49,252 bases of DNA from contig JBAXEI010000005.1 of assembly GCA_037140515.1 (NCBI GenBank), positions 1 through 49,252 of the forward strand. The letters run 5' to 3'. Made by a program: the position numbers and the translations under genes. This stretch comes from Candidatus Berkelbacteria bacterium. GTDB taxonomy: Bacteria; Patescibacteriota; UBA1384; XYA2-FULL-43-10; 1-14-0-10-43-13. Under the pieces are notes generated by a model. It made no database searches. It worked only from the letters and a program-made list of their open reading frames with translations, and had not been told where the DNA came from. This document shows, piece after piece, positions 2,501-21,713 of this stretch; within the stretch, counting starts at the first letter, position 1; each line of letters starts with the position of its first letter.

Positions 2501-2593
2501 GGAAGGTTACCCAAGTGGCTTACGGGAGCGGTTTGCTAAACCGCCGGTGGTCTAAAAGCCGCCACGAGGGTTCGAATCCCTCACCTTCCGCCA
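2501..2593 (+). tRNA. tRNA-Ser(GCT)
   Basis: GGAAGGT acceptor, GCGGT-TTGCTAA-ACCGC anticodon arm, long variable arm, GGTTCGAATCC, CCA. Confidence 0.95.
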
Positions 2594-2765
2594 AACGACA
2601 TTGCATGAATCTCAGGTTAAATATTGCGCAAAGCAAAAATTAAGTCGGGATTCGAACAGGGATGGGGTTGGGAAACGGTAGTTTCCCGCGGAGGAAAGTA
2701 ATGAAAACCGTGGGTTGAGATAAGCGAGAGGGTTGCGACCGCTCAAGATCCCTCACCTTCCGCCA
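2594..2765 (+). mobile_element. tRNA-associated miniature element with duplicated tRNA 3' end (copy 1)
   Basis: ATCCCTCACCTTCCGCCA at 2576-2593 is repeated at 2748-2765. The core at 2648-2747 matches the element at 21499-21596. Confidence 0.7.
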
Positions 2766-21480: not shown

Positions 21481-21639
21481 TGGTTCCGAGACTAGGATCT
21501 CGAGCGGTCGCAACCCTCCCTTATGACAACCCAAGGTTTTCATTACTTTCCTCTACGGGAAACTTCCGTTTCCCGACCCCTTCCCCGTTCGAATCCACAA
21601 ACCATAAAAAAAAGACCAAAAATAATGGTCTTCTTTTTA
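21481..21639 (-). mobile_element. tRNA-associated miniature element with duplicated tRNA 3' end (copy 2)
   Basis: TGGTTCCGAGACTAGGAT at 21481-21498 and 21640-21657; core homologous to 2648-2747. Confidence 0.7.
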
Positions 21640-21713
21640 TGGTTCCGAGACTAGGATTCGAACCTAGGTAAGCAGATCCAGAATCTGCTGTCCTGCCACT
21701 AGACGATCTCGGA
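21640..21713 (-). tRNA. tRNA-Gln(CTG)
   Basis: Reverse complement TCCGAGA...GCAGA-TTCTGGA-TCTGC...GGTTCGAATCC...TCTCGGAACCA. Confidence 0.95.

Follow-up and report, generated by a model that had tools for sequence, protein, structure and literature searches.

A protein-less element family behind tRNA and protein genes of CPR bacteria: a possible miniature integrative cassette that supplies replacement gene ends

Why does the 3' end of a serine tRNA gene occur a second time, letter for letter, shortly behind the gene itself? The question arises at the beginning of the window, by which we mean the whole 49,252-nucleotide stretch analysed here (contig JBAXEI010000005.1 of the Candidatus Berkelbacteria assembly GCA_037140515.1). 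ARAGORN predicts an intact tRNA-Ser(GCT) gene with an encoded CCA at 2501–2593 on the plus strand. Its last 18 nt (tRNA positions 59–76, 2576–2593), which we call the proximal repeat DR1, recur 172 nt downstream at 2748–2765 as an exact distal repeat, DR2. The DNA in between, read on the same strand, starts with a spacer (2594–2646) in which no plus-strand terminator-like site was found. Read as its reverse complement, the 5' arm X' (2647–2657) gives exactly the T-loop and 3' T-stem strand of this very tRNA. Next come a conserved G-rich junction of near-invariant alignment columns (J1/2, 2658–2669), a 7-bp helix P2 with a GNNA/GNRA-type tetraloop cap, assigned by folding and covariation (2670–2687), and a helix P3, assigned by alignment and covariation and partly degenerate in this copy (2701–2721). 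A variable P4 region and a T-loop-like 3' box with one extra base (2722–2747) complete the segment. The initial annotation of this DNA had pointed out the 18-nt duplicate and the T-arm complement; both proved exact, to a degree well beyond chance.

It had also reported the same element behind a tRNA-Gln gene, which holds as well. The intact tRNA-Gln(CTG) gene (ARAGORN; 21640–21713, minus strand) ends in its own DR1, the last 18 nt at 21640–21657. On the same strand follow an S1 spacer with a terminator-like hairpin (21597–21639), the arm X' (21587–21596), the conserved core with J1/2, P2, P3, P4 and 3' box (21499–21586) and an exact 18-nt copy of the tRNA-Gln 3' end (DR2, 21481–21498), after which comes a different, locus-specific hairpin. 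The two cores (2646–2748 against 21498–21596, minus strand) are 87% identical over query positions 3–103 with an E value of 2e-29, or 5e-30 by nhmmer. No ORF was found within 2594–2747 or 21499–21639. We take 2576–2765 and 21481–21657 (minus strand) as complete copies of one protein-less family of about 110–190 nt. Just past the serine DR2, the hairpin-rich stretch 2766–2815 resembles the spacer behind tRNA-Ser(TGA) in a relative (L016), and its short final part looks like the 3' end of a tRNA-Ser. This stretch could represent an earlier insertion, the third layer at tRNA-Ser(GCT).

A profile search of the 1.17-Mb assembly (labelled G000; other G numbers denote other genomes and L numbers individual loci) returned nine copies, and a covariance model recovered the identical nine. 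All of them begin 37–60 nt behind a same-strand tRNA gene in a genome with 41 tRNA genes in total, a linkage that chance does not explain. The hosts are tRNAs for Ser, Gln (two), Ile, Leu, Arg, Pro, Trp and Lys. The 5' segment tracks the T-arm sequence of the respective tRNA in all nine (17/17 for tRNA-Arg), and in seven the core is followed by a repeat of the tRNA's own 3' end (8–18 nt). The tRNA-Ile and tRNA-Lys copies (G000:C1:92812-92928 and G000:C4:48637-48806) have no recognisable distal repeat, and the tRNA-Lys copy is truncated past helix P2. The copies behind tRNA-Gln(CTG) and behind tRNA-Gln(TTG) on contig C3 share an S1 that is identical at 39 of 43 nt, while the two tRNA-Gln genes themselves are identical at just 58 of 74 positions; no relationship is seen between their upstream flanks, their S2 or the sequences further out.

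The family extends far beyond this genome. BLAST detected the core in 26 of 41 related genomes at 0–10 copies per genome; it was also present in 13 of 151 genomes sampled over the phylum under strict filters, and in 16 of 41 genomes of another order. An exact-pattern scan with one genome per species gave at least 120 stretches, and nearly all of the 80 titled matches listed belong to CPR lineages. Those named among the matches listed are Saccharibacteria, Paceibacteria/Parcubacteria, Nomura-, Yanofsky-, Taylor-, Colwell-, Kaiser-, Jorgensen-, Nealson- and Berkelbacteria, Moraniibacteriota and "Patescibacteria group". Among the matches listed, five (L151, L195, L199, L216 and L224) come from MAGs that carry the labels Clostridia, Bdellovibrionales (two), Bacteriovorax and Bacillota; they could reflect wrong binning of CPR contigs, or the element could genuinely occur beyond CPR. 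Among 102 non-redundant copies in a first data set from relatives, 83 lie within 120 nt behind a same-strand tRNA gene, 2 at contig edges and 17 in neither position. A Ser-specific spacer hairpin recurs in different families, even though neutral intergenic DNA cannot be aligned between members of a single genus.

The proposal of a non-autonomous element that uses different tRNAs is well supported by these data, with no ORF and 17 tRNA types among the 83 tRNA-linked copies. The further expectation that copies always follow a tRNA with a matched duplication is borne out for position in all nine copies of G000; the duplicate is present in seven of these, and 17 of the 102 copies lie elsewhere. 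The alternative that such copies are remnants does not agree with a core that is conserved phylum-wide with compensatory changes, given that neutral intergenic DNA nearby is unalignable already within one genus. We found no match to the element in phage records, plasmid records or IMG/VR viral contigs. Rfam 15 covariance models returned only tRNAs from the window at gathering thresholds, and a scan of 2590–2800 up to E = 10 added three chance-level hits only. The literature outside subscription journals yielded no description of such an element. Identity with a described tRNA-linked repeat family, which the initial annotation had named as a refuting outcome, found no match in any of the searched catalogues or publications.

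What is conserved in all these copies? Outward from the gene the order of parts is DR1 (the functional end of the gene), S1, X', the G-rich junction, P2, an A-rich junction, P3, P4, the T-loop-like box and DR2. S1 is often a terminator-like hairpin and sometimes absent. P2 comprises 7–8 bp with a GNRA-type loop, P3 comprises 9 bp and P4 is a small variable hairpin; the T-loop-like box is confined to tRNA-associated copies. Pairing between the arm and the 3' box leaves either one bulged nucleotide or a purine-rich internal loop. In 103 aligned copies, 97.2% of the cells are paired compared to 85.2% in shuffles, and 15 of 20 pairs vary on both sides with 237 compensatory cells, which none of 500 shuffles and no slid register reached; the alignment was fitted to the model and so favours it, but the compensatory classes of both P2 and P3 can be read directly from the raw sequences. 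Both helices covary strongly. Since the folding energies of the two window copies as single sequences are no better than those of shuffles (z = +0.63 and −1.30 as RNA, +0.23 as DNA), the evidence for structure is comparative. The loops of the core tolerate large insertions. One copy behind tRNA-Gln(TTG) (L115, G031:C7, 1620–1830) has large insertions in the P2 loop and in P3 and keeps the junctions and both repeats.

Two details of the core deserve mention. The conserved GG..U in J1/2 can pair with N73-C74-C75 of the copied tail (83–88 G-C cells; U-A in 56 and U-G in 37; alignment A3), at junction positions that are invariant, so that covariation cannot be scored there. RNase P and T-box RNAs read tRNA 3' ends, and the putative pairing resembles that. 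Secondly, the minimal P4 is often GCGAAGC (for example in L012, L016, L027 and L100), which is an unusually stable DNA mini-hairpin. This motif hints that the fold may matter as single-stranded DNA.

The first of these details also fits an alternative explanation. The element could be a host-serving non-coding RNA that is co-transcribed with the tRNA, acts as a mimic or partner of the tRNA 3' half, and affects maturation, stability or 3'-end handling, with the duplicate and the antisense arm as functional RNA parts. Judged by sequence, pairing of the arm with the T-arm is possible, as the initial annotation had suggested. Such an RNA would account for the covarying P2 and P3, for G-U pairs and GNRA-type loops on the tRNA strand, for 83 of 102 copies lying just behind a tRNA on the same strand, for the potential contact between GG..U and the tail, and for the fact that the tRNA-like tail of DR2 is usually perfect. 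One RNA-library contig (2521–2704) indeed crosses from the tRNA into the core, at a depth of 2.5 and possibly as DNA carry-over; contigs from this library are thin in general (depth about 2) and may be DNA, and the stretches they leave uncovered are uninformative. A host function is harder to reconcile with the patchy occurrence of the element. Only 9 of the 41 tRNA genes in G000 have one, and 15 of 41 relatives gave no BLAST match. Within one genus, the element stands behind tRNA-Gln(TTG) in G027 and G031 and was not found there in G029, where the flanks are too diverged to define an empty-site junction. Together with the protein-gene hosts described below, this makes the RNA explanation unlikely in our judgement. 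The GNRA-type loops, the G-U pairs and the RNA-library contig would nonetheless be compatible with a role at the RNA level, which counts against the DNA-level explanation proposed below.

The variable parts of the element follow the host gene. Across the phylum, the arm repeats in inverted form the beginning of the duplicated host segment (its first 10–24 nt, or 8–24 nt of the coding segment at protein genes), and the T-loop-like appearance of the 5' arm is a trait of one subfamily only. For 59 of 66 clear cases, DR1 begins 15–23 nt before the tRNA end; it stops no more than 9 nt past that end in 40 of the 66 and extends 10–69 nt further in 24. Complementarity of the arm scores 21.6 on average with the own tRNA against 14.2 with other tRNAs, and in 61 of 66 copies the arm is a better match to the tRNA of that copy than to its DR2 region. 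Against this trend, L021 has an arm that fits DR2 and not the upstream tRNA. Repeats are 12–87 nt long. In some young-looking copies, perfect repeats of 43–87 nt include the terminator, others are partial tandem units, and in L041 and L052 the perfect repeat also takes in the arm and the start of a second core.

Repeats of this kind might be made by reverse transcription. In such a copy-choice process, a template switch onto the 3' end of an abundant transcript, followed by snap-back synthesis, would produce the inverted arm, and the product would recombine into the source gene. The hosts are indeed abundant RNAs or highly expressed genes, the long repeats often stop near the terminator U-tract with lengths that vary between the limits given above, and the arms of L022 and L094 fold back on the gene end almost without a gap. 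Yet reverse transcriptase was not found in 8 of the 26 carrier relatives, nor in G117, G128 and G222, which have young or many copies. Of 27 copies at tRNA genes that do not encode CCA, only 4 contain it, so the copies follow the gene and not the mature tRNA; copying from mature tRNA was ruled out on this count. Capture of 3' ends also conflicts with antisense hosts at 5' ends, and intragenomic duplication with neutral decay would not yield repeats that differ at synonymous sites only. We therefore consider copy-choice distinctly unlikely.

The last two arguments come from copies at protein genes. Targeting of tRNA genes, as first proposed, is true of 83 of the 102 copies, but ends of protein genes, both 3' and 5', serve as hosts as well. 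In sense orientation, the core directly follows the rpsI stop codon in at least 10 genomes, and it has the same position at fusA (L161, L168), rplL (L196, L216), secA (L041) and an H+-pyrophosphatase gene (L263). It also occurs behind a tmRNA-like end (L110). Where translational GTPase genes (L156, L162, L180, L186, L256, L266) or a glycosyltransferase gene (L239, L242) are the hosts, it stands at their 5' end, in antisense orientation. The identity of those protein hosts that were tested was confirmed by Pfam. The protein-host copies have no T-loop-like boxes, and their arm side faces the body of the conserved gene irrespective of the direction of that gene. This geometry and its independence of gene direction speak for an event at the level of DNA instead of an RNA in a 3' untranslated region. 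The non-coding RNA explanation is at odds both with the identical core type lying antisense at GTPase and glycosyltransferase 5' ends and with cores behind protein genes that have no CCA tail.

Protein hosts also allow the history of the two repeats to be read from their codons. DR1 and DR2 of 25 such cases were compared over 428 aligned codons, of which 224 are identical, 128 differ synonymously and 76 differ non-synonymously, many of the latter where the edge of an alignment extends into the core. By codon position, the nucleotide differences amount to 72/51/166. In L130, 7 of 8 codons differ and all differences are silent (7 synonymous, 0 non-synonymous). The corresponding counts are 13 and 1 in L263, 5 and 0 in L168, and 4 and 0 in L196. 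Arginine and serine codons even switch codon families between the repeats. Two-fold codons differ in 11 of 12 instances in L161; over all cases 31 differ and 90 are the same, so that the excess, striking in L161, is not general and was dropped. Judged by this codon pattern, both repeats have served as real coding ends. Divergence so biased towards synonymous sites does not stem from a fresh intragenomic duplication followed by neutral decay. By the same measure, either the two ends evolved in separate lineages, each as a functional end, or both must be in use. A DNA-level history of this sort is a further point against a purely host-serving RNA. The repeats in L130 and L161 share no identical stretch longer than about 5 nt, so homologous crossover inside the repeat cannot explain those copies.

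Silent differences could also point to processing of the RNA. An intron-like or 3'-exon-swapping RNA would use the arm as an internal guide, remove itself along with DR1, and leave DR2 as the real RNA end. Consistent with this idea, DR2 keeps frame and stop despite many synonymous changes, the arm of L130 pairs perfectly with DR1 and by way of G-U wobbles with DR2, and the succession of guide, core and 3' exon resembles the layout of trans-splicing group I designs. Antisense copies at 5' ends nevertheless share the same synonymous pattern, and the splicing explanation, which this pattern had first suggested, was abandoned in view of those hosts. Several distal copies are decaying by loss of the stop codon, indels, replacement or non-synonymous changes (L106, L121, L257, L242). 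The core of about 85 nt matches no Rfam ribozyme family, and searches for RtcB (PF01139) and splicing endonuclease (PF01974) gave no hit in G000, which is 94.9% complete. Removal at the RNA level is thus very unlikely.

Which of the two repeats arrived with the element? The stop codons of rpsI provide one indication. TAG is the rpsI stop in 2 of 16 element-free genomes versus the DR1 of 8 of 10 carriers, while the DR2 carries the common TAA in 6 of 10 carriers. GC content at third codon positions was inconsistent as to which repeat is native. Because of these stop codons and the shared S1 of the two tRNA-Gln copies, we infer that the proximal copy is element-borne, making DR1 the probable replacement end and DR2 the displaced native end.

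Based on these observations we propose the following model. The element would enter the T-loop region of a tRNA gene, or the end of another conserved gene. The host gene would then be completed by the element's own copy of that end, and the native end would be pushed downstream to become DR2. The moving unit would consist of the replacement end, S1, the arm X' and the core, because these are shared between copies while DR2 and the flank beyond are locus-specific. Lineages specialised for particular conserved gene ends would spread between genomes, and the X'-X inverted repeat together with the core may act as a folded recombination site, or as a guide for recombination or replication functions of the host. 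The target would be split and restored at the DNA level as by tRNA-gene islands, though without an integrase. We put the probability of this explanation, a miniature integrative cassette that acts at the DNA level, encodes no protein and brings a replacement gene end, at roughly 0.5. Horizontal spread of the element would be part of it. The source of an arm and a replacement end that match a new target is left unexplained by the cassette model.

The initial annotation had proposed to look for longer versions that encode an integrase or transposase; none of the candidate enzymes sought is linked to the element. A Pfam phage-integrase family search found a single tyrosine recombinase in G000, on another contig than the window. 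The reverse transcriptases of this genome likewise lie on other contigs. Y1 transposase was not found in 12 of the 26 carriers, and the IS110-type family (PF01548) occurs in 3 of 41 relatives compared to 26 of 41 for the element. TnpB (PF07282) gave no hit in G000, and no ORF adjoins the element. As movers, reverse transcriptase, Y1 and IS110 were rejected for lack of co-occurrence, and TnpB for its absence from the G000 search. Small contigs of G000 (C83, C28, C75, C55 and C34) carry mobile-element genes, namely a group-II-intron-like reverse transcriptase (420 aa), a second reverse transcriptase beside a serine recombinase, two IS110-type genes and one Y1 transposase-like gene, none of them near an element copy. 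As to empty sites and excision, which it had also proposed to look for in reads, the reads of the DNA run contain no joint that skips the element, and the element-free site in G029 has the diverged flanks mentioned above.

A conventional origin would be that the repeats are decayed attL/attR scars of ordinary integrase-carrying islands or prophages at tRNA genes. Direct repeats of a tRNA 3' end are the classic island signature according to the Islander report (PMC4383910), and gene-bearing insertions do occur at the same tRNA ends (L033, L036). Scars of unrelated islands would hardly present one core of about 85 nt, with compensatory changes, beside as many tRNA types as the 17 seen and several protein genes in many CPR classes. 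The ends are precise, the arm is matched to each host and no integrase fragment was found. For these reasons we hold this origin to be highly improbable.

In three genomes, gene-bearing insertions separate the element from the tRNA or from an end remnant with terminator (L033 in G019, L036 in G031 and L082 in G204). At L033 an ORF of about 170 aa lies behind tRNA-Trp; G000 has no such insert. The arrangement at these loci looks like cassette-style stacking at one docking point. At L047 (G174), a partial second tRNA 3' half stands between the tRNA-Ile(TAT) gene and the element, and the arm of the element overlaps the CCA of this half.

The integrative cassette may be taken one step further, to a version that we regard as possible but rather doubtful. 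The folded core and the target-matched arm, as single-stranded DNA or RNA, would form a self-sufficient, programmable module that either guides the recombination or replication machinery of the host or acts catalytically. Such a module might insert at any conserved gene end with a recoded spare end, might have spread across the CPR radiation with no recombinase gene, and might provide a docking system for integrase-less cassettes at the same tRNA ends.

CPR bacteria represent a large share of bacterial diversity, have tiny genomes and contain few recognised mobile elements. Here an abundant family, with 0–10 copies per genome of about 1 Mb, occurs across many CPR groups. The ends of the most conserved genes, including those for tRNAs, S9, EF-G, L7/L12, SecA and GTPases, appear to be edited by it and yet stay unbroken, and the element contributes no gene. 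If it is true that a short, re-matchable arm sets the target, the element would choose its sites by a new principle and would be a candidate tool. In annotation, the duplicates resemble pseudo-tRNAs or att scars, and where an end is element-borne, the terminal codons or bases of a core gene can have a foreign origin.

How does this element compare with known systems? It is small, non-coding, multi-copy and structured as are MITEs and REP-like repeats. In contrast to these, its arm is target-derived and changes with the host instead of being constant for the element, its repeats are gene-end copies of variable length instead of short, fixed target duplications, and Y1/RAYT genes do not co-occur with it. 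Group I introns and trans-splicing ribozymes share with it the series of 5' guide, core and copy of a downstream exon, but its core is far too small, matches no Rfam entry and occurs antisense at 5' ends. The element neither overlaps nor abuts tnpB as an omega RNA would, is not tied to an IS110/IS1111 recombinase as is bridge RNA, and is not adjoined by a reverse transcriptase as are retrons and other RT-associated non-coding RNAs. An archaeal-type BHB tRNA intron would call for the splicing endonuclease and RtcB that gave no hit in G000.

The closest resemblance is to islands. According to the Islander report, islands at tRNA and tmRNA genes insert in the 3' part of the gene, which is restored, and the displaced fragment becomes the far direct repeat (PMC4383910). 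Regeneration of the target tRNA, a displaced 3' fragment as direct repeat and a crossover region in the T-loop are common to tyrosine-integrase islands and to the present element. Unlike these islands, the element measures 110–190 nt, has no integrase or other ORF inside and none flanking it, and combines a conserved folded core with a target-matched inverted arm. Islands have one att core per integrase clade, whereas one core family serves dozens of targets here, with 17 tRNA types and several protein genes among them. Protein genes can be targets too; for example, e14 and phage 21 integrate at icd and the end of this protein gene is restored. Islands at the 5' end of dusA similarly enter and restore a protein-gene end, as described in PMC4482086. 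Like the islands at dusA and icd, the element enters a conserved coding end and brings a replacement that differs mainly at synonymous sites. Those islands are kilobases long and encode a dedicated integrase, while no enzyme is linked to the element.

Integron attC and the attP of CTX phage are recombination sites that fold from single-stranded DNA. The element may resemble them in a putative imperfect hairpin built as arm, variable or structured loop and arm with an extra-helical base, in an arm that would pair with neighbouring or target sequence, and in cassette-like stacking. Of the attC R-box consensus, the element resembles only the AAC/GT pair. The likeness to a folded single-stranded site is a lead and not a result, and it comes with an inversion of parts. 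In attC the stem is conserved and the loop is variable; in the element the loop, which is the core, is conserved and the stem is variable.
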